A stretch of DNA of 64,000 nucleotides from assembly GCA_000002445.1 (NCBI GenBank), contig CH464491.1, positions 352,001 to 416,000 of the forward strand. Direction: 5' to 3'. A program made the translations under genes and the position numbers. Shown piece by piece: positions 6,804-57,595 of the stretch (positions are counted from its first letter, which is position 1; the number at the start of each line of letters is the position of its first letter). The notes under the pieces were generated by a model. The model saw only the letters and a program-made list of their open reading frames with translations, ran no database searches and was not told the DNA's origin. Source of the stretch: Trypanosoma brucei. Its lineage: Eukaryota.

Positions 6804-7412
6804 ACAGCTTTGTTGAGGTCTCCATTATCTAGTTGAGAGATTTTTTATCGTAATAGTGTAGTCATTATACGCAGTTTATATTTGTTTCCCCTCCCCCAGA
6901 GGTTTATGTGTAATGGTCACACGACAGGAGAGCACAACGTCTGTGCGAATATATGGTGTACTGTTCCCGTTGGAGCAGTTGTTGGGAGACAGAGAAGTGC
7001 TACGGAAAGGAAAGGGGTCACACTCTGGAAGTCGAAAATGAAGTAAGTACCTTCATTGTCTATGGTTTGAAGGTGGTGGATGAGTGGGATCTGTCCCCCC
7101 TTGTCGCCTTGTACGTGGGGATTTTCTTGCCACTATTTCACACAGTCTTTTTTTTTGCCTTTACCTGAGATACTTGGTTGCCTCTTCTACATTGAATACT
7201 GTTCCGCGGTTGAATAGTAAAGACGCAGTCGAAGTGGGCTTCAATAGTGTCATCAGTTACTAAGCGATCATCTTGCTTACAATATCGGAAACATCTCCGA
7301 CTGAAGCCAACACAGACAGAAAAGGCTCGGCGTATCGTGAATACCATTGTGACTCTTATTTACGGCCGCTTCAGTCTACATCGGCAGTCTTCAACGTTGA
7401 GACGTGCCAGTA

Positions 7413-17235: not shown

Positions 17236-17304
17236 ATATATATATATATATATTTATTTATTTATTTATTTATATATTTATATATTTATATTTATTTCAT
17301 TTGC
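17236..17304. repeat. (TA)n followed by (TTTA)n/(TTTATA)n microsatellite
   Basis: atatatatatatatatttatttatttatttatttatatatttatatatttatatttattt, read directly. Confidence 0.85.
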
Positions 17305-19261: not shown

Positions 19262-20458
19262 ATGAAATTGTCACAACGGTTCCTATCAAACACTTTAGCG
19301 GAGGCCGGCACGCTTCCTTCCCGTGGGACGAGCCATTCTGAAGCAATACGGCAGTTGATCATGTCTACATTTCCTACAGCAACCATCTCATTTATCACCA
19401 CAGGTTCTAATGGTGCTCACAGTGCCAACGTTACTGATACTACCGCTAGTGTCACTAATGCAGGAACCTGCGCAGAAGAGGACGAAAAACTTATGGAACA
19501 ATTACGTATGAAGGACCAGGAGTCCAAACAATCGGTAGGATGCAGTGAATCACTCGGAGCTCGGCGTGGGCCCTTCACAGATTGCTGCTCACCTCAAGGA
19601 GTTGCGGAGTGGCAACGTTTGCATCAGTTGTTCCCAGCAGAAGCTTTCGTAAATGCTCCACAACCCTGTTGGACTCCACATGCTGTAGTTTACATTGGTG
19701 GATTTGAAGCCCCCGACTTGCGCCGTACAGTTGCACCGCGACTTTTCGAAAAGGTGCCCGCCTTCGTAACGGATAGCGAGCGGGAGCAAACCGTTGGAGG
19801 TCGGACGGCTGTAGGAGGGCGGCAGAAAAATCCCAAGTATGCAACCAAAACACTCCACACGGGACTCCTCATGAGTGAAAAGGGTTGTGCACTGCACGAA
19901 CCAGATTTACTGCAGTTGGCTCTACCACATGTGGGACCATCTGCTATGATACGTACTCGCACATATCTTTCATTTGCTGGTGCGGAGCCTAATGTAACGG
20001 CGTTGAATGGCGCAGTGGACCCGATGCAGCGGGTGGCGCTTCGTCCAGCCTTTGGTTATTCCGCTGCGGCGCTGAGGAACACACTTCCATTTGTTGTCGT
20101 GGGGGCATCTCTGTTACTCCGCCGCTGGAATGCACGATGGTCCTCCACAACTTTGAGTAGCGCCTTTTGGCTTTCTGCAGTTGGTCATGCGGTGGAGAGC
20201 GGACGCATGAGTGAAGCCGGATTGTTAGTGCAGAAGGGAGGCGTGGATGCAAATTCAGTGATGCGGGTGCTGGCAATGGAGGCAAGTTCAATAGCGAAAA
20301 ACTGCCCAGAGGATTGTTGTGTAAACTACTTTTTGCCATCGGAGACATTTGAGTTAGAGAGAGGTTTTGCCGAGTTGATGAATGTTGGACCTCGTCTTCC
20401 CATCGATGATCTAAAGGTATTACCCGTGTACCCTCTTTTGGTGCGTCAAACACGTTAG
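19262..20458 (+). CDS. Hypothetical protein (about 398 aa)
   Basis: The track start 19247 is a GTG; the first ATG is at 19262 (MKLSQRFLSNTLAEAG, a presequence-like basic amphipathic start). The long + ORF has complex composition and no recognised motif. (GTT)n lies right after the stop. Confidence 0.55.
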   Translation: MKLSQRFLSNTLAEAGTLPSRGTSHSEAIRQLIMSTFPTATISFITTGSNGAHSANVTDTTASVTNAGTCAEEDEKLMEQLRMKDQESKQSVGCSESLGARRGPFTDCCSPQGVAEWQRLHQLFPAEAFVNAPQPCWTPHAVVYIGGFEAPDLRRTVAPRLFEKVPAFVTDSEREQTVGGRTAVGGRQKNPKYATKTLHTGLLMSEKGCALHEPDLLQLALPHVGPSAMIRTRTYLSFAGAEPNVTALNGAVDPMQRVALRPAFGYSAAALRNTLPFVVVGASLLLRRWNARWSSTTLSSAFWLSAVGHAVESGRMSEAGLLVQKGGVDANSVMRVLAMEASSIAKNCPEDCCVNYFLPSETFELERGFAELMNVGPRLPIDDLKVLPVYPLLVRQTR

Positions 20459-20952
20459 TGTTGTTGTTGTTGCTGTTGTTTTTCTTAGTTATTAGGGGCG
20501 AATGTTTCTCATCCGCCGTCATGAGGATAGAAAGGTATTTATTTTTATAGTTAAGGCCTCCTTTGCGTGTGATGTGTGTCTGTTTGTGTTGTCAAAGCTT
20601 TATCGGCAAATGGGTGGTGGTCTACCCGAGGGAAGGCCTTTTGTTGTTGTTGTTGTTGTTGTCTTATTGGGGAAGAAGTCAGCGCATAGAATTTTTTTTA
20701 AAAGAAAAAATGGTGGCAAATTTGGGTAATATTCTTTTTCTTTCTATTTCTTTAAAAAGAAAAAAACGGTATTATAACAACATCTCGGCTAGAGTATATA
20801 TATATATGTATATTACCTCCAACGTGCCGTCACGTTTTGTGCTTCTTAATCTATATATTTATCTCTCGGTACTGTTTTTTATGCCTTACCCGACAAGTTA
20901 CCATATTGCCCTTTGTCAAGCAACAAAACGCAAAGAACGTGGTTCGTTGAGA

Positions 20953-22035
20953 ATGAATGTTTTTGATTCCAACAGCATGCTCTGTCAAGTTGTTAGCAAT
21001 ATCACAGACCCGGTGGAACTTTTCATCGAACCAGAAATGACTGTGGGTGAGGTGCGTGCATTGGTTGCGGAGATGACAGTTGACTCCAACGATTGGAATG
21101 TTCGTCTCACATTCCAAGGTCACACTTTAGAGGACGACGAGGAGACATGGAGTTCCGTGACTCAGCAGTACCCCGTCGCACAAGGAGTTGCTCCTAAACT
21201 CTTTTCACATGCATCTAAGAAACGAGAAGAAAAGGCGCGACGACCGGTGAGTTTACCTCTGATGGAAGAACAAAAGGATCGACAGCAGGCAAAACTTATG
21301 GAACCGATAATCGACACGTTGGTTAACGATCCAAATTTTTCGGAGATGATGATCTCGGGTCAGCCGTCGCTTCGTCGTTTGATTGATGCGAACCCGGAGG
21401 TGGGGCGCTTGTTCCGGAACCCAGAAACCCTCAAGAGTCTCATTATGTCACAAATCGACCCTGATCAGCGAAGGGCAATGAATCGAAATGTGCAGTTGCA
21501 GTTGGCACAAATTAGCGCGATTCCCGGTGGTGAGCAGCTTCTTGAACGGTATACCAGTGGGCTTATGGACGATATGGACCTAAACTTGGACCTTGTGAGG
21601 AACACAAAGATTAAGGTTCCAGAAGACGAAAAAGATGATAATTCCGAGTCTGTGAGAGGGGTAAATAGCGAAGCCCTTCCAAACCCTTGGAGTCAGTCGA
21701 CTAACACCGCCGACTCGGGTAACACAAACACTTTTAGTAACGCCGCGATGAACCTTTTTGGGATTCCTGGGAATGTGGGCCATCCGAGTTTAGGAAACCT
21801 TTTTGGGTCCGGTTTGGGGGGACCGTTTCCTTTTATGTCTCCCGGCATCTCAATACCCCAAACAGGCGTAACCGCATCGCAACGGGGAGATGACGCCACG
21901 CGGTGGTCTCAGCAACTCGCCATGTTGAAGGATATGGGTTTCATGGATGAAGAGTTGTGTTTGGACGCACTTCGAATGACTAATGGAGATGTGGACATGG
22001 CAGTAAACTTCATTGTGAACAAAGATAGCTCTTGA
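20953..22035 (+). CDS. Ubiquilin/Dsk2-like UBL-UBA shuttle protein
   Basis: The N-terminal ubiquitin-like fold starts at the internal ATG 20953 (MNVFDSNSMLCQVVSNITDPVELFIEPEMTVGEVRALV). Central STI1-like motifs are present (LVNDPNFSEMM...LIDANPEVGRLFRNPETLKSL). The C-terminal UBA reads WSQQLAMLKDMGFMDEELCLDALRMTNGDVDMAVNFIV. The upstream part of track ORF 20563 is poly-Leu/low-complexity and I treat it as non-coding. Confidence 0.75.
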   Translation: MNVFDSNSMLCQVVSNITDPVELFIEPEMTVGEVRALVAEMTVDSNDWNVRLTFQGHTLEDDEETWSSVTQQYPVAQGVAPKLFSHASKKREEKARRPVSLPLMEEQKDRQQAKLMEPIIDTLVNDPNFSEMMISGQPSLRRLIDANPEVGRLFRNPETLKSLIMSQIDPDQRRAMNRNVQLQLAQISAIPGGEQLLERYTSGLMDDMDLNLDLVRNTKIKVPEDEKDDNSESVRGVNSEALPNPWSQSTNTADSGNTNTFSNAAMNLFGIPGNVGHPSLGNLFGSGLGGPFPFMSPGISIPQTGVTASQRGDDATRWSQQLAMLKDMGFMDEELCLDALRMTNGDVDMAVNFIVNKDSS

Positions 22036-22890
22036 TGTTTCTGTCAAAAAGGAAAAAAAACTTGTCGCACAGAATGGTGGGTGCGGTTGCGCGTGTACGT
22101 TTTCACGAAAGGAGAATTGATGGATGTGGCGTGTAGTTTAGACATATGTGGACGGCCCCGCGGCGGAGGATTTGGGTTTTAAGTGTGTCTCCTTTTCCAT
22201 TTTTAAAAAAAAATTCCAATGCTTTACTTTGGATATATCTGGATGGGGGCACTCTTATATGCTACACCCTTGCGACTTACTTTTCCGTTCATTTACTGTG
22301 GGGTGAGGTTTAAAAAAAAAAACTCGTGTTACTGGAATGGTAAGCGTCGTTTGTTCGTGAACCACATGCTTACATTGGCTATTTAACCTCATTTCATACG
22401 CTCAAGGAGGGGATCAGGGACTTTAATCCACAAGCTTTTGTCACTTTCCCCCTTGTTTTTTGTTTGTATGCACCTTAATGTATGTCTGTCTATTTTCTTT
22501 TTTTCTTCCGAGGTAATATATATATATATATTTTACGTATATATTGGGCACAAACGAACACCTTTTTTTTGCCGGTCAACTTAAAGAATGGGTGGAGCGA
22601 CTTCATCTGAAAGGGGGAATACGAAAAAAAAAAAGGGGGTGTAGCGTTGAGGAACTACTTTCCACTACGGAACGAGCCCTAAAAGAAGGGAAATAGGGAA
22701 GTAATACGCAAAGCACATTTATAAATATTTATATAAAGGGAAAGAGAGCACAGGAGGGCTGTTGGAAACGCAATAAAGCACTTGTGGTACCTCTTCTTTT
22801 TGCGAAAGTGAGGTTACGCTTTGGGTTGCTACTTTTCAGGCGGTAAACTAAGTGATTAGGGTGTGCGTAATTAAAAGTTCCCACCACTTT

Positions 22891-23868
22891 ATGCGCTTTG
22901 TTCCACCTTTCCTTGCGGGTGCAGCACTCGCAACTTACTACCGACCTCTGGACAAGTCGAAATCTGCATATTGCTACGCGAGTATTGAAAATGCCTTACA
23001 CTTTCAACCTAAACCAAAGCCCGGAAAAGTTTTTTCCCAACGATACCAACCGTATACCCTTGGGGATGTTGTTCCGATAACACATGACACTGCTCTTTTT
23101 CGTTTCCTTATTGATGGAAATGAAGAGTTTAACCTAAAGCCATGCTCCACACTACAGGCATGCTACAAATATGGCGTGCAACCTATGGATCAATGCCAGC
23201 GCTTCTACACTCCTGTGACGGCTAATCACACGAAAGGTTATTTCGATATTATTGTGAAGCGCAAGCAAGGGGGACTCATGACAGAGCATTTATTTGGTAT
23301 GCACATAGGAGATAAACTTCTGTTTCGATCAGTCACATTCAAACTGCAGTATCGTCCGAATAGGTGGAAACACGTGGGAATGATAGCGGGTGGCACTGGG
23401 TTCACTCCAATGTTGCAAATCATCCGTCATTCGCTCCAGGAAGAATGGGACAACGGTATGGTTGATCGGACTAAATTATCTTTTCTTTTCTGTAACCGAA
23501 CGGAGAGACACATTTTGTTGAAGGGACTCTTTGATGATCTCGCACAAAAGTATTCCAATCGTTTTAAGGTATATTACACAATTGATCAGGCTGTCGAGCC
23601 TGACGTATGGCCGCACTACACCGGACTCGTAACAAAAGAGATGGTGCATGAGACCATGCCGGCACCGAATGAGGAAAAAAAGATTATATTATTGTGTGGT
23701 CCCGATCAGCTGTTGAATCATGTCGCTGGAACACCAATGGGAACAATGAACACCATGTCGAGTGGAATGAATATCCAACCGATGGCACCAGACCTCAATA
23801 ATTTAGTAAATCTTGGGGGGATATTAGGGGAACTCGGGTACTCCAATGATGAAGTTTATCGCTTCTAA
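22891..23868 (+). CDS. NADH-cytochrome b5 reductase-like flavoprotein (FNR superfamily)
   Basis: N-terminal hydrophobic anchor (FVPPFLAGAALATYY). The FAD-binding RxYTP motif (QRFYTPV) and the NAD-binding GGTGFTPMLQII glycine motif are present. Spacing is typical of the b5-reductase family. The first ATG is at 22891; the track start is a GTG. Confidence 0.8.
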   Translation: MRFVPPFLAGAALATYYRPLDKSKSAYCYASIENALHFQPKPKPGKVFSQRYQPYTLGDVVPITHDTALFRFLIDGNEEFNLKPCSTLQACYKYGVQPMDQCQRFYTPVTANHTKGYFDIIVKRKQGGLMTEHLFGMHIGDKLLFRSVTFKLQYRPNRWKHVGMIAGGTGFTPMLQIIRHSLQEEWDNGMVDRTKLSFLFCNRTERHILLKGLFDDLAQKYSNRFKVYYTIDQAVEPDVWPHYTGLVTKEMVHETMPAPNEEKKIILLCGPDQLLNHVAGTPMGTMNTMSSGMNIQPMAPDLNNLVNLGGILGELGYSNDEVYRF

Positions 23869-24810: not shown

Positions 24811-25419
24811 ATGCTTCGTCGCACGTCGTTTAATTTCACAGGGCGTGCGATGATTTCGCGCGGCAGCCCCGAGTGGTCGCATCGTTTGGATCTCAAGAAG
24901 GGGAAAAAGACGACAATGATGCACAAACTTGGCACCAGTAAACCCAATAATGCATTGCAGTATGCACAAATGACTTTACACGACCTTACGGAGTGGTGCC
25001 TCGCTTACTCGCCGTGGCCTCTCACCTTCGGTTTGGCATGTTGCGCCGTAGAAATGATGCATGCATATGCTTCTCGGTATGATTTGGATCGTTTTGGTAT
25101 TGTACCGCGTCCAACACCCCGTCAAGCAGAAATTATTATTGTCTCCGGCACTGTGACAAATAAAATGGCTCCAATCTTGCGGAACATATATGTTCAAATG
25201 GTGAACCCCAAGTGGGTTATTTCCATGGGAAGCTGCGCTAACGGTGGTGGTTACTATCACTTCTCCTACGCCGTGCTCCGAGGCTGTGAAAGAGCAATAC
25301 CAGTTGATTTCTGGATTCCCGGTTGCCCTCCTTCAGCGGAAAGTCTTGTCTTTTGCTTGCATACATTACAGAAGAAAATACGCTGGCACGAAATTCAAAA
25401 GTATTCTGTTCGAGATTAA
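24811..25419 (+). CDS. NDUFS7: NADH:ubiquinone oxidoreductase 20-kDa subunit (PSST/NDUFS7/NuoB homologue)
   Basis: ATG at 24811 with a basic presequence ([18 protein letters not shown]). Diagnostic NuoB blocks are present: [11 protein letters not shown]...[30 protein letters not shown] and IPGCPP. Confidence 0.9.
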
Positions 25420-26071: not shown

Positions 26072-26407
26072 ATGTCCGCGAAGATGTGCCACGTCGTCAT
26101 GTTTGCTCTCGACGCAACGAAGTTCGCCGCCAATCTTCCGGGTTCCGAGTTGCAGCGGCACCTGAAATTACTTCGCGAAACAGTTCCGGGTTTGCTCGAA
26201 ATTAATATGGGCCCAACTGGAACGGATCTTTTTCCCGGTTATGTGGATTGCAGCGGTGGTTTTACTCATTGCCTTGTCTCAAAGCACACAGATGTAAAGG
26301 CACTGCAGGAATATGTGGCGCATCCGAACCACGTCACGTTTGCGGAATTACTAAAGGCCTCATATTCCAAACCTCCCATCCGTGTGGACTTTGAGCTGAA
26401 GGAGTGA
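26072..26407 (+). CDS. Stress-responsive A/B-barrel (Dabb) domain protein
   Basis: A 111-aa ORF with ATG at 26072. HVVMFALDATKF...HPNHVTF matches the Dabb pattern (HVVLFKFK...HP.H). Its size fits a single Dabb domain. Confidence 0.55.
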   Translation: MSAKMCHVVMFALDATKFAANLPGSELQRHLKLLRETVPGLLEINMGPTGTDLFPGYVDCSGGFTHCLVSKHTDVKALQEYVAHPNHVTFAELLKASYSKPPIRVDFELKE

Positions 26408-27620: not shown

Positions 27621-30600
27621 ATGAGTTCTGTGAGGCTTCTACTTGGTCAGGTGATGCACATCACTCCGTCGAGTGTTATTTTCTCTGCTGATGAAGTGGA
27701 CACACTTGACTTTCAGACAGTGAGCACCATTCCGAAAGCACACCGGGACTTTGTTCAAAAAAATGGACTCATTGCGAAGGTTATGCTCTCAGTGACATCA
27801 AAAATAACGAGCTGGAGCACACGGGAGGAGCGACAAAAGATTTGGTGGGACGCACTGACGAGCACTGGGCTCGTCAGGTCCAAAGCGACCACCGTTGAGG
27901 TGCCAACTAACCTGAGCGGTGTGTTTTGGCCCATTATAGACGATGAACAATTGATGATATATGCCGATGCGGCGATAAAGCGCCATGCGAATCTGAAACT
28001 TAATGAGTGCCCTTACGTTGTTCCAGTTTTATATGCGCAGCAAATATTTTATAAGTGCCAGGAGGTCAAGGGGACGCTTTGTGTAGTTTGGATGCCGAAA
28101 TGTAGGTACAACTTGGCTCACTGGACTAAGGTGCAAGTGCCCAGACGGTTCATCCCCGAATCTGTACTATACAAACTTATATACGACATCACCAATGCTC
28201 TAATTTTCCTTCGCGATGTTTGTGTGGAGTATCCAGCCTGTATCTCCATGGAAGACATCCTCGTCGGAGGAGTTAGTGATGCGGAACCATCTTTTTTGTT
28301 GAACACATTAACCAGTAGACCAACCTGCAATCAGAGCGAGGCGAACAGCAGATCGTCGTCCACGGTGCTTTTCGCACCTGAGTTGTTGATTCAACCTTGC
28401 AAATTGCTTACCAACTCGGCTTGTAATGTTTGGTCGCTGGGGATGATCGCTTACCAAATTGCATCGGGACTACCTAGCGAGGAAAGTAAAGCACATCTTA
28501 TGGGGACACGCCACGCGGCAGGTGAGATGATGCTTAATCATTATCGATTGAAACCAAGCGATGTTGTACTTCGTGTGCGGGCAGTACTGCAGGCGGGTTC
28601 TTACAACAACCCGTTTATTCACCTCCTGCTTCTTATGCTAGGTCAGGACCCACACACGCGACCAACACCCTATGTGGTCTATGAAATGCTCCGTGATATT
28701 ATGCGTTTCAAGCCTGTCATTCGCTTCCCGTTTGCCATTGGACCCTTCACTCTGGTGCACTTGTGGTCGGATGACAAAATAGCAGTCGATCCAGTACAGC
28801 GGCGGTACGATACAGAGGCTACCTGTATCGTATGCAACGAAAGCCGCAGCAATTTGATGTGCGGGGACAATGAGCACACGTCTGCACTGTGTTCACCCTT
28901 GTGGTCCGCGGAGGAGCCGCTTCCGGGGTACGCAGTAGCTCGTGAAACTTCCATGACTTACTTGTATCCCATGCTTGGGAGATTGGACAAAAAAGCGCAG
29001 CGGCGGTACATCGATGCAGCATTACGTGGCGACAAAATGAATAGAGGCAGCTTGCTTCAACTGCTCGGTGGTTTCGCTTTGTTGAAACCCAATGAGGGGA
29101 AAAGTGCTGTGGCTCACGACGTGATGATTCCTTTACCTAATGGTGTTCTTCATAAGGATGAAAAAGTCGCAGTGGCTGCGGAACTCAATTTCACCGCGGC
29201 ACTGCCGTGGCCTTCGCAGTGCACTTTCAAACTCCAGCAGGAGGGGAGAATACAGTGGTCCATACCTGGGTTATTCGGCTTCTCCAATGCCCGTTGGTAT
29301 GCGTGGATATTACCGGGAGAGAAGCTGGAGTTGAATGGGGAACCGTGGGTACCGGCCCCTGATGGTGCTTTCGTGTTTTGGTTTAACGAAAGTCTACAAC
29401 CCTCAGAGTATGATCGGTATTTCGTTGTCTGCAGTGTCCTCTCCTTGACGTGGCAGGCGAAAATGAAGAGCAACGTGCTTCCCGACCACGTCTTCAAGAG
29501 AAAGGGTGATGTCGGTGGTTTGACACCCAGCAACGGATCTGAGGGCGGTTTCTCAAGCTGTACAACATCCCACAACGGCGAAGGGTCGGCGGAACGTCAC
29601 TCCAAAAAAGATGTGGACGGTGTGAACAAAAGTGGTCGTAGCGCGTTAGGGCAACGCTCTGTGAACTCGTTGCTCAATCTCCCCAAAGTTGGGGATCTGC
29701 AGTGCACAAAGGGAGATGGTATATTGCCCGCCCGGAGGCAGGTGAGTAGCACTGCAAATACCACCTCATCATCATCCAACTCTTGTGATTCTGATAACTC
29801 AAATCCTAACCACCGACGGCCTCCGAGGCGTGGAAGTGCGGTTGTGCGCATGGACTATGTGGATGATGTTGTGCCGGATATGATTTTTGATGGCACAGGG
29901 GAGACAAACAGCAAAGGGCAGCCGCTGCAACCTCAGCAGCGAAACGGGGTTACCGGACACCGATCAAACTCAACAGAAGGTATCATATCTGTACTTCATA
30001 GGAGTGAAGACGGGATGGCTTGTTCCACACCTCGTGAGCCAACGTACCCTCGAGAGAGACCTCAGGGCAGGCACATAAACCCTCAACCAACCGAACCAAC
30101 GGCTAACCCCCGTCCTCCACCTCCGAATAATTCCCCCGGAAGACGTCAACGGCACGAAGGTGAGGGCAAGTTTGGTCGACTACCAAGTGGAATGGTTACA
30201 ACACCAACCCTCTCCAAATCACCATCCGGATCCCGCTTCTCTGGTCGGCCATCATCGCCAAGCGCCGCGGATGTTAACCGGACGTTGTCACCGAAGGAGA
30301 GCGCAGTGCTTCAACAGAGTAAAACCGGATTCCCACTGCAATCGCCCCCATTACGTGTGTTTGGACGTTGGCATCCTCCGCGGCACATTGACGCGCCGTT
30401 TCAATCGCTTACATTCTGCACATCGTCAACTGCTGAGCATGGGACCTTATCGCCACCAGTGATGCTGTCGATGGGAGTCCGCACGGCCCTCCATGCTCCT
30501 GCCGCCGCAACTCACATGGCGTTCGCCGCCAATATTATGCCATTAGTTCGCCGAAATCATCCAAAGAGCTCTGCGGCACTTGTTGTTAAGGAAAACAATG

Positions 30601-31091
30601 CGCGAGACATCATCCCCCACCATGGTTTGGTGTTTTATGATGAAAAGGAGGAGGTAGTTGGTCTTTTGGCACTGCGATTCGCCCTGACAAGATCTCCGGA
30701 CATCACTACAGGAGAAATGCTTCTTCCAATAAGGCTACTGCCGCCAGTTGTTGCGACAGCCGCCTTTAACGCGCAGTTGAATGCTGCTTATTTTACCGGT
30801 AATGCAGTTTTCCACAGTATCACACGCGTTGGGAGTGAAAGTGAAGTATTGCGTCACTCAGAGAGTCTCCAACACCTCGGAAACTTCGAAACTCTTTCGC
30901 CCTTATCTAAGAAACTAACCCTTTCAGGGGCGCGTTTCGGAGCAAGCGATGATCCACCGCACAAAGTAGTCTGCGGTGACGACGACGTCCTGCCGTTCTG
31001 TTGGATTGGTTTTGAAAACCAGTCGCGTATGTTGATGATTTCAGATGTGCATCGCCTCTCCTGGTATCCATTATACTTCACTGATGAATAA
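27621..31091 (+). CDS. Protein-kinase-like protein, probable pseudokinase, with a long Ser/Pro/Thr-rich disordered C-terminal region
   Basis: ATG at 27621. The kinase C-lobe signatures are recognisable (FAPELL = APE motif; NVWSLGMIAYQIASG = DxWSxG). The catalytic loop reads PACISMEDILV instead of HRDLKPENILL, so the catalytic Asp and Lys are lost. There is no clear GxGxxG or DFG motif. The C-terminal 500 aa are rich in SP/TP/R. Confidence 0.75.
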   Translation: MSSVRLLLGQVMHITPSSVIFSADEVDTLDFQTVSTIPKAHRDFVQKNGLIAKVMLSVTSKITSWSTREERQKIWWDALTSTGLVRSKATTVEVPTNLSGVFWPIIDDEQLMIYADAAIKRHANLKLNECPYVVPVLYAQQIFYKCQEVKGTLCVVWMPKCRYNLAHWTKVQVPRRFIPESVLYKLIYDITNALIFLRDVCVEYPACISMEDILVGGVSDAEPSFLLNTLTSRPTCNQSEANSRSSSTVLFAPELLIQPCKLLTNSACNVWSLGMIAYQIASGLPSEESKAHLMGTRHAAGEMMLNHYRLKPSDVVLRVRAVLQAGSYNNPFIHLLLLMLGQDPHTRPTPYVVYEMLRDIMRFKPVIRFPFAIGPFTLVHLWSDDKIAVDPVQRRYDTEATCIVCNESRSNLMCGDNEHTSALCSPLWSAEEPLPGYAVARETSMTYLYPMLGRLDKKAQRRYIDAALRGDKMNRGSLLQLLGGFALLKPNEGKSAVAHDVMIPLPNGVLHKDEKVAVAAELNFTAALPWPSQCTFKLQQEGRIQWSIPGLFGFSNARWYAWILPGEKLELNGEPWVPAPDGAFVFWFNESLQPSEYDRYFVVCSVLSLTWQAKMKSNVLPDHVFKRKGDVGGLTPSNGSEGGFSSCTTSHNGEGSAERHSKKDVDGVNKSGRSALGQRSVNSLLNLPKVGDLQCTKGDGILPARRQVSSTANTTSSSSNSCDSDNSNPNHRRPPRRGSAVVRMDYVDDVVPDMIFDGTGETNSKGQPLQPQQRNGVTGHRSNSTEGIISVLHRSEDGMACSTPREPTYPRERPQGRHINPQPTEPTANPRPPPPNNSPGRRQRHEGEGKFGRLPSGMVTTPTLSKSPSGSRFSGRPSSPSAADVNRTLSPKESAVLQQSKTGFPLQSPPLRVFGRWHPPRHIDAPFQSLTFCTSSTAEHGTLSPPVMLSMGVRTALHAPAAATHMAFAANIMPLVRRNHPKSSAALVVKENNARDIIPHHGLVFYDEKEEVVGLLALRFALTRSPDITTGEMLLPIRLLPPVVATAAFNAQLNAAYFTGNAVFHSITRVGSESEVLRHSESLQHLGNFETLSPLSKKLTLSGARFGASDDPPHKVVCGDDDVLPFCWIGFENQSRMLMISDVHRLSWYPLYFTDE

Positions 31092-32868
31092 GCATTGGTG
31101 TGATTGTTGCCGCTTGGGCGTAGATTTTTCTTTTCCTTTTTCCTTTTTTTTGTTTTTGAAGAGTATGAATCACTTCCTTCTTTTCGTCGATGATTTCTAT
31201 TATTCCCCATCCCTCCCTCGGTTGATTTTTTTTTTTACACCTGTACGTGTATAGTTTTTTTTTTAATTAACTTGTGTTACCGCAGTGAATGTTGTCAAGA
31301 ATGGGAAATATTATGAAGGGGAAAATGAATAAGCAACCTTCACTGTTTGGCTGGAGCAGTAAGGTGTACAACAAACATTTCCCAGTCTTTTTTTTTTCAT
31401 CGGATCCCCCCCCCATTTTTTGTGCCCGTTTGTGTCCGCCTTTCATGCAGAAACGAATTGAATAGCGGTAACTGTGCTTCACGGGAAAACAAGTAATGAA
31501 AGCTGAATAAAATGAATATTTCTCGTTTTGAGTTGTTTTTATGCTTTTATTTATCTCTTCGGGCAGGCATCCATTTTATTTCCTGCGTTTGTTTCCTTTT
31601 TTTGTCCGTGCCATTTCCCCCGTTCAGTCCCGAGGCTCCTCCGCGCTATCGCAGTAGATTTTCGTAGATCCACGTATTAATTTTCTTTCTGAATAATTAT
31701 TTTAACTATTTCCTCCTCATCTGCGCTACTCTAACACAAAAGGGCTTTCCACAAGTGAGTTGGTGCAGGAAATTCTCCTACAAATTATATATAATTGTAT
31801 ATAGTAGTTTCATTTCTACTATTTATTTTTTTTCCTATCGAAGTTTATTTTTTTTTTTGTTTCTGATGTGCATATCGCAGACATCAAACCCTTGTCTTGT
31901 ATTTGAAATTATGCATGGGGATCTATGTATCGGCGCACGCACGCACGCAAACACATGCACAAATACTATTTCCATTATTTGTTCTTATAGAGAGAAAGAA
32001 AGAGATACGAATGTTTTTGACATTATGATAATATGAGATAACAAAAGAAAATAATAATCAGTAAAGGCAATAAAGGCAGTGATGCGTGCTGGTGGTTTGT
32101 GAAGGATGCGGCGTACACCGGTGTTCCTGTTTTTTTTTTTCCTGTTTCAACATTGACACACCCGCACTGTTGTAATAGGAAATATAGATTTCTCTCGTAA
32201 ATATGACCAAACCATGTAAACGCATACACCCACATGTATATATTCTAAGTGAGGAACACTTTAATCGCTAAAGAGAATAAAACAACGGAAGAAAGAAAGA
32301 AAGATGGGGGAGAAAAGATAAATTGTGGTGACTACCTGAACGCAGCGAATTATATTTTATTTATTTATTTCTGATTATAATAAATTACCTTTATTATTCT
32401 TATTTCTTGAGGAGGTGGCACCCCTCTCATGTGGCGAGTGAGGTAGAAAAGGAGGAGCAGACTGATATACATATATATATTTATTTAAAAAGGGACAAAT
32501 GCAGCGGGTATGGGGAAAAGGAAAAGCAACCTAAGCTGAAGAAAAGAAAAAGGTAAGGGAAACTTGATTGTTGAAGCGCGGTAAGGGGACACATTCAAGC
32601 ATTGATGAGTATCTTTGTGCACTTAGTAGCCATGTATCTCATCGTATATTTACACGATTCGCCACATACTTATATGCACACACTTGAAGATGACCTAACT
32701 TACTGCCTTGTAGTATTTCAACACTCTTAACGGCCGCTGTCTCTTCTGCTCATGCACGTTCATGTTCTTTCGTCTCTTACTTTTGTTGTTTTTTTTTTCA
32801 TTTTGGCTTCAAACGTTCCTCAATATTAACTATTCGTGGTAGCTTTGCCAACAGACGGGTTTTTAAAT

Positions 32869-33792
32869 ATGTGGAGGCCTTATACTTTGTTTGTTGTGCC
32901 CATGCGATTCGGGAGTCCGCTTCAGTTGAGGTCGCTATTTGTTTCCCGCATGCCTGGTCGTTTTGACGCCTTTTTGACACGGCGATTTGTTTCAACAGCA
33001 ACACCCGGAGGGCAGCCGATTTGTAGTGACTCTCATAATTCTGCAGCATGTCTTACGGCTGAGGAGTTCTCCAACATCGTCCCCATGTTTTTGTTGGGTC
33101 AAGCGCTACGTCAACACACTTCTAATGAGGAAAATCGTGCAGGCGCAGGTGAGTTTGTCATTACCCGCGAGGTATTCAACCGCTACTGTAGCGAAAGCCA
33201 CGTGGAAGACACGGACAAAGCTCTTCAACTCCTCTGCGAAAGCGGTGTCGTCGTTTCTATTTCTGATGGAGCGGCGGTTCATCTTCGACCGGTGCAGTTC
33301 CTTCAAATGCACAATGACGCCGCTGATGCGAGTGATGCGAAGGTGAAGACACCGTTTGAAGATTATATCCGGGCAGCACAAAACCGTTTAGCGGATGCGG
33401 AAGCGGAAGAAATGGCGATGCGGGTTGCGCTTCAACCTGCTATTGATAATGCAGCGAAGCGGCGGCGACTCTTGTGGTCGGGTGCCCTCTGCCTTATGGC
33501 GGTCCAACTTGCAGTGATCTCACGGCTAACATTTGTTGACCTTGACTGGGATATCATGGAACCTGTGTCATATTTTCTGGGCAGTGGTACATCGATCCTG
33601 TTTCTTATTTATCTTCTCAGGAATGGGCGGGTGAAGAGCTACAAGGAATATGAAGAGAAGGCAGCGGCGTCGCGTGTTCGGCTGCACGCTCCGGCAGACT
33701 TCGAGTGGAGGAAATACGATGCAGTGGTGAGACGAGTGGAGGTGGAGAAGAACATGGTGGAGCAAATGCGGAAGTGGTTTAAACATCACTGA
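32869..33792 (+). CDS. MCU: Mitochondrial calcium uniporter (MCU) family protein
   Basis: Two hydrophobic helices flank the canonical selectivity-filter motif DLDWDIMEPVSYF (compare human WDIMEPVTYF). The N-terminus is presequence-like (MWRPYTLFVVPMRFGSPLQLRSLFVSRMPGRF). At 307 aa it is the size of kinetoplastid MCU paralogues. The track start 32836 is a GTG; the first ATG is at 32869. Confidence 0.75.
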   Translation: MWRPYTLFVVPMRFGSPLQLRSLFVSRMPGRFDAFLTRRFVSTATPGGQPICSDSHNSAACLTAEEFSNIVPMFLLGQALRQHTSNEENRAGAGEFVITREVFNRYCSESHVEDTDKALQLLCESGVVVSISDGAAVHLRPVQFLQMHNDAADASDAKVKTPFEDYIRAAQNRLADAEAEEMAMRVALQPAIDNAAKRRRLLWSGALCLMAVQLAVISRLTFVDLDWDIMEPVSYFLGSGTSILFLIYLLRNGRVKSYKEYEEKAAASRVRLHAPADFEWRKYDAVVRRVEVEKNMVEQMRKWFKHH

Positions 33793-35192
33793 TATTATTC
33801 ATAGTGTTGTATGGACCTTTTTCTGGAGTTGTTTATTATCTTCTTTCCATACGTTTTCTTGTTTGTCGATGGCGCCAAAGAAGGGGAATGGGAGACATGT
33901 TTAGTTGTTGTTTTTTTTTTTTTACATTGAGCAGGAAGATCAATCCTTCGTTTTTATCCTTTGAAGGGGGAAAGTGCTTTTGAAACACTTTGGTGTCCAT
34001 TATCTTTTTTGGTGCTTTTCGTGTGCGTTAGTGTGAGGAGATGCAGGAAGTTCACTGATGTTTTGTTGGTTGAATCGGTTGATTTTGCCGTTGTCTTCTT
34101 GTGAGTTGAAAACTTGAATTACCTTCTTGTTATTCATTTCTTTATTTCTACTTCCGCCTTGTGTGAGGCTGTCACATAATATATATGCATATCAGTGGTG
34201 TTGCAACCAGGAGGTAGAGGAGAGAATACTGCCCTTTGTATTCTAAGTGTTGGGCCGTTAATGAGTGACGCAACGCGTAATAAAGTTATGGCTTTTTGTT
34301 TGTTTTCATTGTTTCCTTCCCTTTTGACCATTTTGCTGCTATCCTTTTTGGTGACGACTGATATGCCATTCGGCTTGCAGTTGACTTTTGTAAGGTAATT
34401 CTCTTCGTTCGAGCAATCCCCTTAACATATATATATATATATTGATACTCATAAACTGTTGTTTACGCTACTCTGCCGTTCTCATTTTTCTCCTATAACT
34501 ATTTTTAAAAAAATTACTTACTTTGTTCCCATTTGTTTGCTCTGATTTCCCCATTGTTGAGAAAAAAAAAGAAAAAGGGGAAGAAAAGAAACCTAACGGC
34601 AGGTTGTGTTTATTTTCCCTTCTTTCTTCTGTCATAGCCGCAAGCAATTTAAAGCTCCGAATCACGCAAATAACTATTGTATTAACAAGACGGAAACAAC
34701 AGTACCCAAATTTTTTCCCTTTCATTTGTAGTAAAAAAAAAATACATTTGTATTTTTTTGTTTTTTTTTGCTTTTTTGCCGGTACTTTTTGTTCCGCCTC
34801 CGTTAGAAACAACTCCGGAGGGAAGAGAAAAAGGGAAACTCCCGCAAGGGAATACGAACAAACTAGCAGAGGGGAGATTTAGAAGAAGGAAAGGACAAAG
34901 ACGGAAGTGTAACTATAAAGAGTGAAGAAGGAGCGTAGGCGGGATTATTTTATTTTATTTTTTTCCATAAATCCCTTGCCCTGTCGGACCAGAAAGAAAA
35001 TACATAAAATCAATTGATAGTCAATAAACTTTAAAAAAAACAAAGAAAAGGGTACCAATAAGTGGAAACAGAAGTGGCGGATACCCTCCCCTACGAATAT
35101 ATCCAATCCTTGCAGTGGTTCCAGCGAATTGATCAATCAAAGCAGAAAGGGACGAAGTAAAACCGTTGTGTTCACAAGGTGGTAGCCTACAG

Positions 35193-36899
35193 ATGACGAT
35201 GTCGGACACAAGTGCAACATACAGTCTCCACAACCACTACGGGAGGATTAATAATGTATGCACCATTAGCCCACAGGCGTCACCCAGCCCATCAGCATTA
35301 CCTCAAACCGTCGAGGAGCACTTTGATGCAGAGGCTTTACTTAAAGAACAGAGACATCTCTTGGAGAGTTCCCCTGCAGCCGAAATTCGTGCCTCACCAT
35401 TTCTTCGATTTCGGTTGAACGCCCAACAGAAGTTCACAATGCAGCACAATCAATACCTGGAGCGATGTGCGCAGAGGGAAGCCTCAGACAGGAACCCGCA
35501 CCCACTCACAGCATCTGCAACTGGTCTAAGGGAACAGTTTACACAACATTTGGGTCGTCAAAGCATTAGTCAAGGACAAAACCAAAGCTATCAAGATGGG
35601 GAAGGGTTGTGTTGTTCCGGCTGTCAAAATCGTTTTGTGGATGCCATTGCTTTGAACAGACACAAGTCCACTTGTAGCGAATATGCTGCACTGGTGTTAC
35701 AACGCCGTGGAAGCGAAAAACTACATTACACAGCCCGCTGCTTTTCTACTAGGGAAACTGCTGTTACGCCGAGCAACACAGATATACGTCCCATACTCAG
35801 TATTCGAGAACGCGCCGAGGATCCTCAACCGATACCAGATGTGCTCACAGCACGTGGCGGACACTTTTCGTATCGCAACCAACTTTCCACTCACGGAGGT
35901 TATCAGGGAAATGAGGGAGAGAATGCCGCTGCAGTCGCTGTGTTTTCACCTAAGGCGGGAAGTGGAAGTTTGAGCCGCTCTCTTCCAACCCCAACATCTT
36001 TGCGTGAGGATATGCATAGCGAATTTGAGGCGCGAGACACAAAACACAACATCCGTGCTCGCACCCAGTCGCAGGAGTTAACTCCGCCGACACCAACCTC
36101 CACATGGCACCAGCCGTCTACTTCACTCAGGGTTACTTCAATCGATGAGGTTCCAGCCTCTGTGGCTGCTAGGCAGAGTGTAGATGCAACGATGCCCACA
36201 ACTCCTCTCGGCTACCAATTGGGTGAACGATTTGATGTGGATATTTCGGTAGACAAAAGCAGCTTTGGTGCAGGGACATTCCAAGGCATGGTGTCGTATT
36301 CCCACCTTGGAGGTGGTGTAGATAGCTTAAGAGAGTCCTCTGAGCCTCCTGACGAGCCACTTAAACCGTGTCCCAGCTGCGGTCGTCAGTTTTTCGCCTA
36401 CTCACGGTGGCCCCGGCATGTGGCTGTTTGTGACAACAAACGTCAGCAAATAAACTCTAGAGGTGGTGGCTCGGTTTCCTCCATCTCCTCGTTTCGTTTC
36501 CCATCAGGAAACGCCAACCGCCTCCCGCAAACTGCCCTGGAAAAGTCGACGGAATTAGGCGGTACCACCACCACTACCACTACTACTACTACTGCCACTA
36601 AACTGACACGCACAAACACTTCAGAGAAGAGAAAGAGCCTTGGAGCCAGTTACGTGGAACCTAGTATTGAGAGGAGACCACTGAGTGCGTCAAACCGAGG
36701 TAGGGACGCTATGGAAGGACCGAATTTTGTGCGGACGTCGACGTATAGCAGTGAAACTTTTGCAGAGGAAGATGGCCAAGTTGTTGATGATCGCGTACCG
36801 TGTCCTTCATGCGGGCGTCGTTTCGCCACCCATGTGGCCGAAAGGCATATTCCCCACTGTCGTGAACGCAGCGAAGGGAACCCACCAATACGGTTGTAA
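35193..36899 (+). CDS. ZC2HC-type (C2HC) zinc-finger protein with a poly-Thr tract
   Basis: Three C-x2-C-x11/12-H-x3/4-C units are present: CSGCQNRFVDAIALNRHKSTC, CPSCGRQFFAYSRWPRHVAVC and CPSCGRRFATHVAERHIPHC. An 11-residue Thr run is encoded by (ACC/ACT)n at 36563-36597. The track start is a TTG; the first ATG is at 35193. Confidence 0.65.
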   Translation: MTMSDTSATYSLHNHYGRINNVCTISPQASPSPSALPQTVEEHFDAEALLKEQRHLLESSPAAEIRASPFLRFRLNAQQKFTMQHNQYLERCAQREASDRNPHPLTASATGLREQFTQHLGRQSISQGQNQSYQDGEGLCCSGCQNRFVDAIALNRHKSTCSEYAALVLQRRGSEKLHYTARCFSTRETAVTPSNTDIRPILSIRERAEDPQPIPDVLTARGGHFSYRNQLSTHGGYQGNEGENAAAVAVFSPKAGSGSLSRSLPTPTSLREDMHSEFEARDTKHNIRARTQSQELTPPTPTSTWHQPSTSLRVTSIDEVPASVAARQSVDATMPTTPLGYQLGERFDVDISVDKSSFGAGTFQGMVSYSHLGGGVDSLRESSEPPDEPLKPCPSCGRQFFAYSRWPRHVAVCDNKRQQINSRGGGSVSSISSFRFPSGNANRLPQTALEKSTELGGTTTTTTTTTTATKLTRTNTSEKRKSLGASYVEPSIERRPLSASNRGRDAMEGPNFVRTSTYSSETFAEEDGQVVDDRVPCPSCGRRFATHVAERHIPHCRERSEGNPPIRL

Positions 36900-38397: not shown

Positions 38398-39340
38398 ATT
38401 TGAGACAGTGAGGAGGATTTTTTTTAAAAAAAAAGAAGAGAAAAAAGAGAAAGGGGGGATTACGTGAATATATATGCGGTTGCAACCCTCTGATTAATAT
38501 AGTGCCAAACGAGAGGTGTTTGCATATGTTGAGGGGGTAAACTACACACCCTTCCTTTATATACATCTCCTTCATCCTTCACTTGATCGCTTTCATTTTT
38601 TTTATATTTTTGTTCCTGCTTATATTAGGGGTTATAATGCATTATGCATGATGTGTTCTGCTCATTTCATACACGAGGGAAGGGAAAACGGAAACGGAAA
38701 TGCAAGAACGGGAGAGAGTAGGAGCGAGTGAACTGACATCAATTCAATCGGGGGAAGTGTTTAAAAACACCTCACCGGTATAACTTCCCCTATTGATACG
38801 TTACGCACGATGCTATTTCTGTTGTTGAATACTCGCGCTCTGAAGATCGCCTTTTAGCACATGTGCCACATTTCCCCTCGGCTCGGTCTTCTTTCTTTCT
38901 TATATGTTTGCTTCTACTCTTTTTTCTTTGTGTTTCCTCCAAATTACAACTGTTGTTAGGGGCTGCGACACGGTTTCACGGTACACATATAAAGTTATAT
39001 ACGTAGACGCCTGCGTACATTTCACAATTGGATACAGACACACAAGTTTTGTTTGAACTAAGAGGAAGTTCGGTAGTATAGATTCGAAGAAAGAAAAAGG
39101 AATACCTACGTGAGTATATTGTATAAAGGAGGAAACGGGCAAGAGCTGTTGAAGACAAATACTTCAAAGAGAGGACGTTTCCACACATACTTTTGAAAAG
39201 CGGCCGCAGTGCTGCATAAGTGCAGGAAGTAGAGTTGGAAAAAAAAAGAACAATTCCGACACCAAAACAACATTGGGTGTGTGCAAGTACGGCTCAAAAT
39301 CGCTATCACCACTTGAAACTGTGGTTTGAGTGAAAGGGAC

Positions 39341-42300
39341 ATGTTGTTAAACAATTTTATTGTTGAGGAACGTTACAGCGCATGGCAGAAGAAAAGGGTT
39401 CGAACAATCATCGTTAACAGCCGCTCACGGTTGGCTGCTCACCGCAGCATCACGGGAGCTTTGGCTATAGCGAAGCCGTACGAACGTATTGAGTTGGTGG
39501 GTGGTGAGTACTTCGAGTCGCTATTGATCAGTGCCCCTATTGAAATTGTGGCTGCGGACGGCGAGGAACCAGTTGTCTCCTCCCGTGGTTCCTGTATTAC
39601 CATCACACGAGATGTTGAGGCGTATTTTGAACAGGTAACATTTGTGTCAAAATCAAGAAGTAAACTGGAGTCCGCAGTGGCTATTCTCAACGGAAGATCC
39701 GTTTTCTTCCGCTGCAACATGAACTCTGTTCTGATAGGTGGATGGGCGCGCCCGTATATTGAAAACTGCACAATTGCTGAGAGTCACAACGGTTATGGAG
39801 TACAAATTGGTGACAGCGCGGGTGCTGACATTTGGCAATCGGCAATCCATTCACACCAAATAGCATGTATGGAGATTGATACGAGGGGTATAGTTAACGT
39901 GCGTGATAATACAATTCATCAGTCATCTAATTTGGGGAACGCTGTCGTCGTCAAGGCAATTAATAGCATCGCGGACGAAACCACTCCGCCAGAGTTCCTT
40001 GCATGCCGTCGAGTAGTAGTGACAAAATGCCGCATTTACATCAGCCCTGACTCTTATGTTCCAAAAGACCGCGACATGAGCTCACTGGAAACTCCAACGC
40101 AACCGTGTAGTTGTGTGTTGATATCACGGGGTGCGTGCCCAACATTTTCCTTCAACGAACTGACCCAAGGAAACATCGGGTTTACATTCGATGGTGCTGG
40201 TTCTGCTGTGCTAGAGGGAAATTGCATATACAAGCAGAAGATATGTGGTATTCTTGCTATTGTGGATGACACTAACTTCTCTCCAGACTCAAAATCAAGG
40301 GGTCTACGCATTACCGGAGGTAATCGAATTGACCGCTGTTACGTCGGGATAGACGTGCATTGCTCCGCAAAAGCTGCAATGGCCGCGGGAGTGAGCCAAC
40401 AAAACCTCATTCCGCTGGAACTGCCATCGAGTCGTAGGGCATTCACGTGGTTCAGGGGGAAGGATAGTGGCAAAGTTGTGGCTCCCCCTTCGGACAAGGA
40501 TAATTTTGATGATAACCACACTTTTGTAGTACATGGTCAGCCAAAAACAATGAAGCAACTGACAAATGAACTGAGAGAGTTGGCCACTATGGTGTGTGCC
40601 GGGCATATTAAGCACTTTACTTCGGCCACTGTTGCAGACACACGTTACGGCGTTGCCACGAGCCTTAACCAACTGGGAGAACTCTTGGAAGAGATGTTAA
40701 ACATCACAATTCCTCCACCTAACATTTCAGAACGTGCGGCTAAACTATTGGAGCTACGACGAACAGATGGAGTTGAGATTCGAGACACGAGGTTCTCCAG
40801 TTGTGGCCTCTGTGCTATTCGGTTCGGCAGCAGCTCCTATGGCGTAGTGGAAGATTGTAGTTTTGTTTCCTGCGGTGCAACGTGTATTGTGGTGTGTAGT
40901 GCGGCTCACCCTCTGATTATTGGATGTAGGTTTGAGCACGCAAAAGGTGTCGCCATTTACATGGACAACTTCGCCAACCCTCTTATCATGGGTAACGAAA
41001 TCATAGGAAATGCGGAGAATGGCGTGGAATGGCGAAATATTTCTCGCGGGATCTTGATGGGAAATGCCATCGTCGGAAGTACTGTCAACGGTTTGTTATT
41101 GACCGGTGGGTGCAGTGCCATTGTTGCAGCTAATTCGATTCAATGCAATAACGCAGCGGGAGTAGAGGTAGCGGAGGGGAGTAAACCGTTTATTCTTCTT
41201 AACAAATTAATAGGAAATAGGACAGCACAAATCCTTTCCTCAGGATACTCAGCACCCGTTATTGCCCATAATAGAATTACCAGCGGTAGAAACATTGGTA
41301 TACACTTTCTTTCGTGTAGCGGTGGCACCGCTTTGGATAATGCAATCGCCCAGAACGAGCGTGGTATTGTGGTAGAGTTGGGTGCAGATCCCTACGTGTA
41401 TGATAACAAAATTATGAGCTCGAACCGTTATGGAGTAGTAGTAGAAAACAATGGCCTCGGAACATTTGTGGAAAATACAATCACGCAAAGTGGGATGTGC
41501 AACATTCTCATTAAGGAGGGTGGTTGCCCGGTGTTGCGCAAGAATTCCATCAAGTTCGCCAACTCTGGTGGTTTGGTGATCGTGAACGAAGGATCCGCCA
41601 CTGTTGAATACAACACAATTTCCGGTAACCAGGTGGCTAATGTCATTTTACTGGACCGGTACACTGATCCCACACTTACAGGTAACACAATATCTGCCTC
41701 ATGTAGTGGGGGTGGTATTCTCTGCGGGCGCATGTCCAGTGGAAAATTCAGCCGCAACATCATTACGGAGAACAAGCAATATGGTATCTGTATCATCGAG
41801 AAGGCGGAGCCCGATATCACCAAGAACGTCATTATGGGAGAACAAAATGGTATCATCGTCTCTGATGAGGGGCGCGGTTCGATTCGAGAAAATTCCATTC
41901 ATTCCTGCGGCAACGCTGGTGTTCTCATACAAGCAAACGGTGATCCGTTTGTAGAAAACAACAAAATATGTCGCTCCGCGGGTTGTGGTTTGGTGGTGAC
42001 GAGTGACGGGAAGGGGAAGGTTATTGGCAACGAGTTTTTCGAAAACGATGTGGGACTGCAGTGTGGCTCCAGTGCGGGAAACACAACGCTAGATGTTGAT
42101 GAAAATTTCACAACGAAGAGCCCTGGAGCAGCCGTAGCACGGACACGTAGGTCCGCCCTGGTGAGCAAACGTTCATTTGCTGGCAAACGGCAGCATATTC
42201 AGTCAACATCTACCGCAAATCCACATGCCCTTGTGCGGTGCAACAAAATATACGGTAACACTACGTGTGGCGTGCTGTTGGAATGTGGGATCTCCGCTGT

Positions 42301-56899: not shown

Positions 56900-57595
56900 A
56901 ACAAAAAAATGCATTTATGGGACCGTTAAGAGGGGGATGCACGACGGCGCATATCACTGTTCTGGTTTTCTTCTTTTTCTTTTGTAACTTTTCTTTTTGT
57001 AGTTTCTCGCTTCTGTTACTTTTACTTTCCCGTTATTGTTGTTCGTCGGTTAATATCAATGTAATTGGGGAATCGGCTCTATATGGCAATAATGGACGGT
57101 GCGCCATATCAAAAAAAAAATTGTGAGCCTTGTAAGATAATATGTGGTGAGGGGAAGTGAGTGGAGCTCCACATTTTAGAGCGCGAGCCGCGCTCGTAAC
57201 GATCCTCGTTTTAAAAAAAAATTTTTGAGCCCTTTAGTGGTCAAACGCGGGTCGTGTTTTCCTTACGGCTTCGTCTAATACCGTGTCTCCCTTCAACGCA
57301 AAAAAAAAAAAAATTATATATATATATATAGCGCTACCCGCTTACTTCTTTCTCTCCCCCTTTTTTTTTCCTTTCATCTCTCTGGTTGTGCTGAAGCACA
57401 CACACGCAAACGTACACAGGAAGGGGTGTTCGAGTAGTCAAAAAAAAAAATTACATCTGGAACTAGGCACAAACGTGCGTAGTGTTTTTTTTTTTTGTGT
57501 AAGGTAATTTGAAAGAGGAGGGGGGGGAAAAGGCAACAGAAAAGGGGGAAAAGAGAGACAGGTGTAACTATACCAGTCTACCAACGCCCCTCAGT

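Follow-up and report, generated by a model that had tools for sequence, protein, structure and literature searches.

Does a protein that carries kinase signatures near its N-terminus, but degenerate motifs where the catalytic residues should stand, work as an enzyme or as something else? This question is raised by the open reading frame (ORF) at positions 27621-31091 of a 64,000-nucleotide stretch of Trypanosoma brucei DNA (contig CH464491.1; hereafter the window), which an earlier note, made from the letters alone, had taken for a probable pseudokinase with a long disordered tail. The ORF listing confirmed a complete frame exactly there on the plus strand (+), running from ATG to TAA and encoding 1156 aa; nucleotide coordinates given below without a strand lie on the same strand. 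All the strings that the note had quoted were located in the protein: FAPELL at aa 251-256, NVWSLGMIAYQIASG at 269-283, PACISMEDILV at 205-215, GGVSDAE at 216-222 and TEPTANPRPPPPNNSPGRRQRHEGEG at 824-849. The translation showed 0 mismatches over 1156 aa to the T. brucei brucei TREU927 protein XP_828225.1 (UniProt Q387B8) and 100% identity to a T. equiperdum entry, and its residues 888 and 890 are T and S within 'NRTLSPK', matching the published phosphosites of flagella connector protein 1 (FC1). The next ORF downstream has an MCU domain and encodes 307 aa from its first ATG; this neighbour is TbMCU, which is Tb927.11.1350, and the ORF in question is therefore the adjoining gene Tb927.11.1340. 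Thus, the ORF encodes FC1 (Tb927.11.1340).

The protein that the note had described is real, but its prior characterisation had been missed: the gene was published in 2015 as FC1 by McAllaster et al. (Mol Biol Cell, PMC4551316), and what the present analysis adds is incremental. According to that work, FC1 localises to the flagella connector, the structure that joins the new flagellum's tip to the old flagellum, and RNA interference (RNAi) against FC1 left the new flagellum with a detached tip in 48% of the 1N2K cells and 59% of the 2N2K cells while causing no growth defect (PMC4551316). Stable isotope labelling by amino acids in cell culture (SILAC) in the same study marked FC1 as a putative substrate of TbPLK (Polo-like kinase), with T888/S890 phosphorylation being TbPLK-dependent. 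The paper does not take up the missing catalytic residues, nor the central domain or the relatives of free-living kinetoplastids whose kinases are intact, all of which are described below. Later work assigned FC1 to zone 3 of the connector and counted it among four proteins whose depletion breaks the flagellar connection, and a ribosome profiling study, in which the kinase domain was termed 'atypical', reported ~13-fold more FC1 footprints in procyclic forms. The connector has been described only in T. brucei. We found no paper that explicitly names FC1 a pseudokinase, in a search that did not extend to Varga et al. 2017 (PNAS). Because of the zone 3 assignment between membranes, we also considered FC1 as a transmembrane or secreted protein. 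Neither a transmembrane segment nor a signal peptide was found in FC1 (maximum 19-residue Kyte-Doolittle hydropathy, 1.39), which ruled this out, and the zone 3 assignment therefore cannot mean that FC1 itself crosses a membrane or is secreted.

Our answer, which we hold with good confidence, is that FC1 is a soluble, non-membrane structural component of the procyclic T. brucei flagella connector, built from an N-terminal pseudokinase fold, a central domain, a disordered linker and a C-terminal domain, and that it is predicted to be catalytically inactive, to serve as a scaffold and to be regulated by phosphorylation. The localisation, the RNAi phenotype and the phosphosites in this statement are published, while the identity of the ORF, the loss of residues, the clade B residues introduced below and the domain boundaries come from the present analysis. 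What is new here, namely the explicit pseudokinase assignment, the intact-kinase relatives, a map of the domains and the two among them that have no known relatives, is an incremental advance.

The degenerate protein-kinase domain occupies aa 1-365 (27621..28715). The note had proposed Pfam and HMMER profiles as a check, and this check came out in two parts. T. brucei FC1 alone matched Pfam Pkinase (PF00069) below the cut-off of 31.7 bits, with an E-value of 5e-4 and 20 bits, and in the C-lobe only (aa 237-350). The family as a whole gave a clear kinase similarity: 11 of 15 orthologs individually matched Pkinase at E<=0.01, a profile of four Trypanosoma orthologs picked up, at E<1, 233 different kinase sequences of the PDB, with 1e-4 as the best E-value, and hhalign of the FC1 ortholog profile against that of clade B, a sister group of proteins with intact kinases, gave a probability of 100% and an E-value of 4e-78 over 525 columns. 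In addition, the motifs of FC1 are colinear with those of kinases, in the order beta3 Lys, catalytic loop, DFG position, APE, WSxG and R347. The kinase fold claimed in the note was thus borne out. It rests on this profile evidence because the AlphaFold model of aa 1-630 was poor, and we did not use that model for fold searching.

We next placed the catalytic residues. The catalytic loop was located by three independent alignments, namely hmmsearch matches to CDPK and PDK1, 24 family members aligned by MAFFT and the hhalign comparison with clade B. All three put the equivalent of HRD at P205-A206-C207, within the loop PACISMEDILV (aa 205-215, 28233..28265) that aligns with 'HKDLKPENIL' of CDPK and with 'HLDxxxxN' of clade B. 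The HRD Asp is therefore replaced by Cys207, the position of the catalytic-loop Lys by S209 and that of the catalytic Asn by D212, so that the loop reads in place of HRDLKPENILL just as the note had proposed, with both the Asp and the Lys substituted. The note was also right that there is no Gly-rich loop: where clade B reads 'GEGAQA/GKGANS' in the MAFFT alignment, FC1 has 'HITPSS', which contains no glycine and does not fit GxGxxG. On the other hand, its placing of DFG at GGVSDAE (aa 216-222) did not hold, since the same three methods put the equivalent at 'FLLNTL' (aa 225-230, 28293..28310). Here the Asp is replaced by N228 when aligned with 'IIDFG' by hmmsearch, or by T229 when aligned with 'DLE' of clade B by MAFFT and hhalign, an ambiguity of one residue, and neither candidate is acidic. 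These losses are family-wide: both the HRD Asp and the DFG Asp are absent in 16 of 16 trypanosomatid sequences (hereafter clade A), with no Asp in either of the two possible DFG columns.

Other residues were kept. The beta3 strand 'LIAKVM' (27768..27785) retains Lys53, the equivalent of the VAIK Lys, in 'IAKV', and this residue is invariant in 23 of the 23 family members that cover the position. The C-lobe signatures APE (aa 252-254) and NVWSLG (aa 269-274; together 28371..28469) are likewise kept according to profile and family alignments, with W271 and G274 retained, and E254 and R347 are invariant in 15 orthologs. In kinases, this Glu-Arg pair forms a structural salt bridge. No conserved Glu could be assigned to alphaC, where lineage-specific insertions lie between beta3 and the 'ECPYVVP' region and the model is poor. 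The inspection of VAIK, HRD and DFG that the note had proposed thus returned one kept residue, K53, and two lost ones. When a pseudokinase is operationally defined as a kinase fold that lacks at least one of the VAIK Lys, the HRD Asp and the DFG Asp, FC1 falls within the definition, having lost two of these three as well as the Gly loop and the catalytic Asn. Taken together, the alignments support the earlier prediction of a pseudokinase: the N-terminal domain of FC1 is predicted to be catalytically dead, with the residues that stabilise the fold kept and those of the chemistry lost.

Homologs were sought with HMMER in an exhaustive search that covered 1.84 billion representatives; a word-indexed search had given only 5 Trypanosoma proteins and its repeat with an alignment one, both being uninformative. 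FC1 orthologs were present in T. theileri, T. conorhini, T. grayi, T. vivax, T. congolense, Leishmania martiniquensis, Lotmaria passim and Angomonas deanei. The ortholog of Angomonas appears as two gene models, P0017/P0026 (AGDE_13160 / AGDE_13161), which cover the N-terminal 540 aa and the C-terminal 445 aa, probably because of an assembly or annotation split or a frameshift. Three long matches, P0016/18/20, of 2300-2600 aa, were considered as paralogs; P0016, the sole one inspected, proved to be a trypanosomatid FC1 ortholog with a degenerate catalytic loop. Low-complexity insertions, some of them inside the kinase-like domain, have more than doubled the length of P0016 (2612 aa); the protein retains the loop as 'FEMEDILV', and the region of the Cys cluster described below appears rearranged.

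The same search uncovered clade B (P0021-P0031), a sister group of the free-living-kinetoplastid type with the same overall architecture, one member of which corresponds to the Neobodo designis protein A0A7S1MLZ3. Clade B resembles FC1 in its four-part architecture, in the 525 alignable columns and in the giant beta-helix gene that lies downstream. It differs in keeping GxGxxS/A, HLD...N and D[L/F]E, in passing the Pfam Pkinase threshold and in having much shorter linkers. In the 24-member MAFFT alignment, H-L-D, the catalytic Asn and D-[L/F]-E are kept in 8 of 8 clade B sequences, and the three scanned members that have a full domain matched Pfam Pkinase at 1e-13 to 1e-18. Judging from these residues, the clade B kinases are probably active enzymes.

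The genomic neighbourhood bears on how the two clades are related. On an 86.9-kb kinetoplastid contig from a groundwater metagenome, a giant Beta_helix/NosD gene (locus L001, 11042-18832) lies directly downstream of the clade B gene P0031, and the N-terminus of its product is 30% identical (E 9e-29) to the N-terminus of a 3003-aa ORF of repeated Beta_helix/NosD units, the second gene downstream of FC1 in the window (39326-48337, +). The shared beta-helix neighbour and the colinear architecture therefore support positional orthology, and clades A and B are probable orthologs, although they may instead be ancient paralogs. The likely course of events leads from an active kinase, in free-living kinetoplastids, to the pseudokinase of trypanosomatids. 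In the four Trypanosoma species compared, mean pairwise identity is 44% in the kinase-like domain, 61% in the central domain, 54% in the C-terminal domain and 22% in the linker. The kinase-like domain is thus the least conserved folded region, in line with relaxed constraint.

Several points weigh against our reading of FC1 as a catalytically dead scaffold of the connector. K53 does not vary, and an acidic residue is common among the orthologs at 211/212 (E211-D212, within 'MED'); these residues would leave room for nucleotide binding or a non-canonical mechanism. The literature search found no FC1 activity or nucleotide-binding assay, and catalytic inactivity is here deduced from sequence. 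The AlphaFold model of aa 1-630, made from 4 sequences, had a mean predicted local distance difference test (pLDDT) score of 41 and does not define the geometry of the N-lobe. Finally, orthologs are found in Leishmania, Lotmaria and Angomonas while the connector has been reported in T. brucei only, and the ancestral role was therefore probably not connector-specific; the connector role is probably neither the ancestral nor the sole function of FC1.

The first of these points leads to an alternative in which FC1 is an atypical kinase, active by way of non-canonical residues such as E211/D212 as a catalytic base together with K53. Kinases once called pseudokinases, such as WNK and CASK, are precedents. 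The conservation of K53 in all family members that cover it, the acidic residue at 211 and/or 212 in most trypanosomatid orthologs, and the purifying selection on the kinase-like domain, which is 44% identical compared with 22% in the linker, speak for such an enzyme. However, four separate catalytic elements (Gly loop, HRD Asp, catalytic Asn and DFG Asp) are gone together, and the DFG column varies among the orthologs (N/T/S/V/A), which is not expected of a compensating catalytic site. Moreover, the kinase-like domain is the least conserved of the folded domains, and the sister proteins hold the canonical set, so that the canonical mechanism appears to be ancestral and to have been lost rather than replaced. 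We therefore consider an active FC1 improbable.

The predicted pseudokinase is followed by the most conserved part of FC1, a central folded domain at aa 371-606 (28731..29438), which had been missed in the earlier note (~235 aa). We built an AlphaFold2 model of aa 365-1156 from a 19-sequence alignment that covered both clades, in which this domain had pLDDT values of 80-90. It contains a Cys/His cluster, C402-x2-C405-x8-C414-x4-H419-x4-C424 (28824..28892), all five residues of which are invariant in 4 Trypanosoma species; C414 is invariant in the 19 sequences from both clades, of which at least 90% have C402 and C405. From this pattern, the cluster is probably a zinc knuckle, and would bind zinc.

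The second half of the central domain, aa ~472-606 (~135 aa; 29034..29438), to which some of the HMMER matches were restricted, we call domain X. In FC1 it carries the motifs GGF, PWPSxCT, GRI, WxAWxLPGE, GAFVFWF and DRYF. It is also found in small proteins of a centrohelid, a euglenid and Pelomyxa whose C-terminal end is a C3HC4 RING finger, and in a related rotifer protein that has no RING, the consensus of FC1 and the small proteins being GGF...PWxSxxT...GRF/I...WxxPxE...GxFVYLF...DRYF. A local hidden Markov model (HMM) of domain X matched the RING proteins and other proteins containing domain X alone at E-values of 1e-16 to 1e-29. With a broad profile, no domain X family was found in Pfam or the PDB; the PLC-gamma2 SH2 domain came up at a non-significant E-value of 0.33, and the Pfam matches were chance ones at E>0.07. 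The RING proteins show a weak internal repeat, in which 'THFCWxYPP' resembles 'WYAWILPGE'.

The note had described the C-terminal 500 aa as disordered and open to phospho-regulation. The first part of this region is indeed a disordered linker (aa 607-908, 29439..30344), with a pLDDT of ~30; it is rich in Ser, Gly, Pro and Arg (S 14%, G 11%, P 11% and R 9% over aa 626-910). The second part is not disordered: aa 909-1156 (30345..31088) form a C-terminal globular domain that is conserved in both clades and confidently folded, with pLDDT values of 80-96 for aa 909-1060 and 1124-1156 and a low-confidence internal loop at aa 1061-1123. Neither this domain nor aa 371-606 had any match in the PDB or Pfam.

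As for phosphorylation, FC1 has 14 SP/TP sites, 8 of them in the linker, and the published TbPLK-dependent sites lie there as well, in the segment N-R-T888-L-S890-P-K (30276..30296), whose residues we verified. The preference of Plk-type kinases is [D/E/N]-x-[S/T]-hydrophobic, and T888 in N-R-T-L fits it. The sites on which the note had based its phospho-regulatable tail are thus present, and regulation through them is a plausible consequence; its further suggestion of a regulatory hub was graded as speculation. A short stretch at aa 732-750 (~29814-29870) stands out within the otherwise variable linker: the basic RRPPRRGS is followed by RMDYV(D/E)D, of which RMDYV (aa 743-747, 29847..29861) is invariant in 4 Trypanosoma species. 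Other trypanosomatid orthologs, of the Leishmaniinae type, carry a related 'LRVxxxN[DE]'. This motif may be a docking site or a site for a basophilic kinase.

With the whole layout in view, a second alternative can be weighed, in which FC1 is a fourth member of the PLK-derived KKT2/KKT3/KKT20 group, and so combines a kinase with a Cys-rich centromere-localisation domain and with divergent polo boxes, but has been put to use in the flagellum. The architectures are superficially the same, each with a divergent N-terminal kinase, a Cys-containing centre, a long linker and a C-terminal globular domain, and FC1 is kinetoplastid-restricted, co-localises with TbPLK and is its putative substrate. On the other hand, the solved KKT2 central domains gave no sequence match to FC1 at E<=10 and no structural match, and no polo box was found in the C-terminal domain of FC1 by PDB sequence and structure searches; the PDB includes the KKT2 central-domain crystal structures and should include polo-box structures. 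KKT20 has no kinase domain, the protein lengths differ and so does the zinc-site pattern, and we rejected an origin from KKT2/KKT3/KKT20 or from PLK as very unlikely. That the resemblance to kinases is spurious, with chance motifs strewn over an unrelated fold, is hardly credible in spite of the sub-threshold, C-lobe-only Pfam match of FC1 and its low-confidence first AlphaFold model, given the hhalign match to clade B, which itself passes Pkinase at 1e-18, the 233 PDB kinases, the 11 of 15 orthologs that matched independently and the colinear order of the subdomain motifs.

If FC1 is a pseudokinase scaffold as we propose, its kinase-like domain would most likely be a docking module rather than an enzyme, its three folded modules would bind other components of the connector, and its linker would be the handle by which TbPLK could control the assembly or release of the connector in the cell cycle. 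More tentatively, and at slightly less than even odds, we propose a joint picture of its past. Domain X (aa ~472-606) and the C-terminal domain (aa 909-1156) would be folds without a described relative, domain X being an ancient eukaryotic module that presumably also binds the substrates of a family of small RING E3-type proteins found in centrohelids, euglenids, Amoebozoa and rotifers; FC1 would descend from an active kinase of free-living kinetoplastids, having lost catalysis at the base of the trypanosomatids and having later been co-opted into the T. brucei-specific flagella connector, with its orthologs in Leishmania and other genera serving a different, possibly flagellar-tip, function.

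These results have practical consequences. The 'kinase domain' of FC1 is better treated as a pseudokinase docking module, and the gene appears to be absent from the kinome-wide RNAi library tables searched, which ought to include a kinase or pseudokinase; Tb927.11.1340 was not found in the screen supplements that we searched as text. The layout of three folded modules and one regulated linker provides boundaries from which truncation and interaction studies can be designed. It is not the kinase fold of FC1 that is conserved most, but an undescribed domain that the protein has in common with RING proteins. The intact-kinase orthologs of free-living kinetoplastids offer a natural before/after pair for the change from enzyme to scaffold, and the orthologs in species that have no connector imply an older function of FC1.

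FC1 lies in a same-strand gene array without introns, which resembles a typical kinetoplastid polycistron. TbMCU (Tb927.11.1350), the mitochondrial calcium uniporter, is at 32836-33792 (+), where the listed ORF starts at an upstream GTG and the first ATG is codon 12, giving the 307 aa mentioned above. In the EukProt gene model P0009, an FC1 ortholog and MCU are fused in a prediction of 1764 aa, and the adjacency of FC1 and MCU is therefore conserved in another trypanosomatid. Upstream of FC1, the array encodes a heavy-metal P-type ATPase (HMA + E1-E2; 7404-10298, +), a ubiquilin-like UBA protein (20563-22035, +), a cytochrome-b5-reductase-like oxidoreductase (22852-23868, +), the NADH dehydrogenase 20-kDa subunit (24811-25419, +) and a Dabb stress-barrel protein (26072-26407, +). 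Downstream are a zf-C2HC protein (35166-36899, +) and a WD40 protein (57509-60178, +). The long ORFs at 2630-3940, 4179-6803, 19247-20458, 50154-51557, 52320-54992 and 55649-56899 had no Pfam match. The most AT-rich stretch of the window, 16001-18000, has a GC content of 0.30, a negative GC skew and no long ORF, and contains a microsatellite, (TATATATT)x6.6, at 17239-17291.

Among known systems, KKT2, KKT3 and KKT20 are like FC1 kinetoplastid-specific and have the same domain layout (Nerusheva & Akiyoshi 2016, PMC4821238; Marciano et al. 2021, PMC8178753). The central domain of KKT2/3 binds two zinc ions and has in addition a C2H2 finger, while KKT20 lacks a kinase domain (PMC4821238, PMC8178753). 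In contrast to these two zinc sites plus a finger, FC1 has a single 5-residue Cys/His cluster, and its localisation differs too. KKT2/3 are also treated in the literature as functional kinases, including in a paper on the kinase activity of Leishmania KKT2, unlike the predicted pseudokinase of FC1.

A closer parallel in place is ULK4, which, in 2017 work as cited in PMC10295485, is likewise a predicted catalytically inactive kinase-fold protein at the T. brucei flagella connector. This pan-eukaryotic ciliary pseudokinase has no VAIK Lys and is partnered by the active kinase Fused. FC1, on the other hand, keeps this Lys and lacks the HRD and DFG residues, is kinetoplastid-specific and has no known active partner, being only a putative substrate of TbPLK. 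MLKL, Tribbles and STRAD-alpha are pseudokinases that lack several catalytic motifs, keep the beta3 Lys and act as interaction or scaffold modules. FC1 resembles them in the replaced acidic residues of HRD and DFG, in the degenerate Gly-rich loop and in the kept beta3 Lys. It is not affiliated with them in sequence, and belongs instead to a kinetoplastid-specific lineage with central and C-terminal domains of its own.

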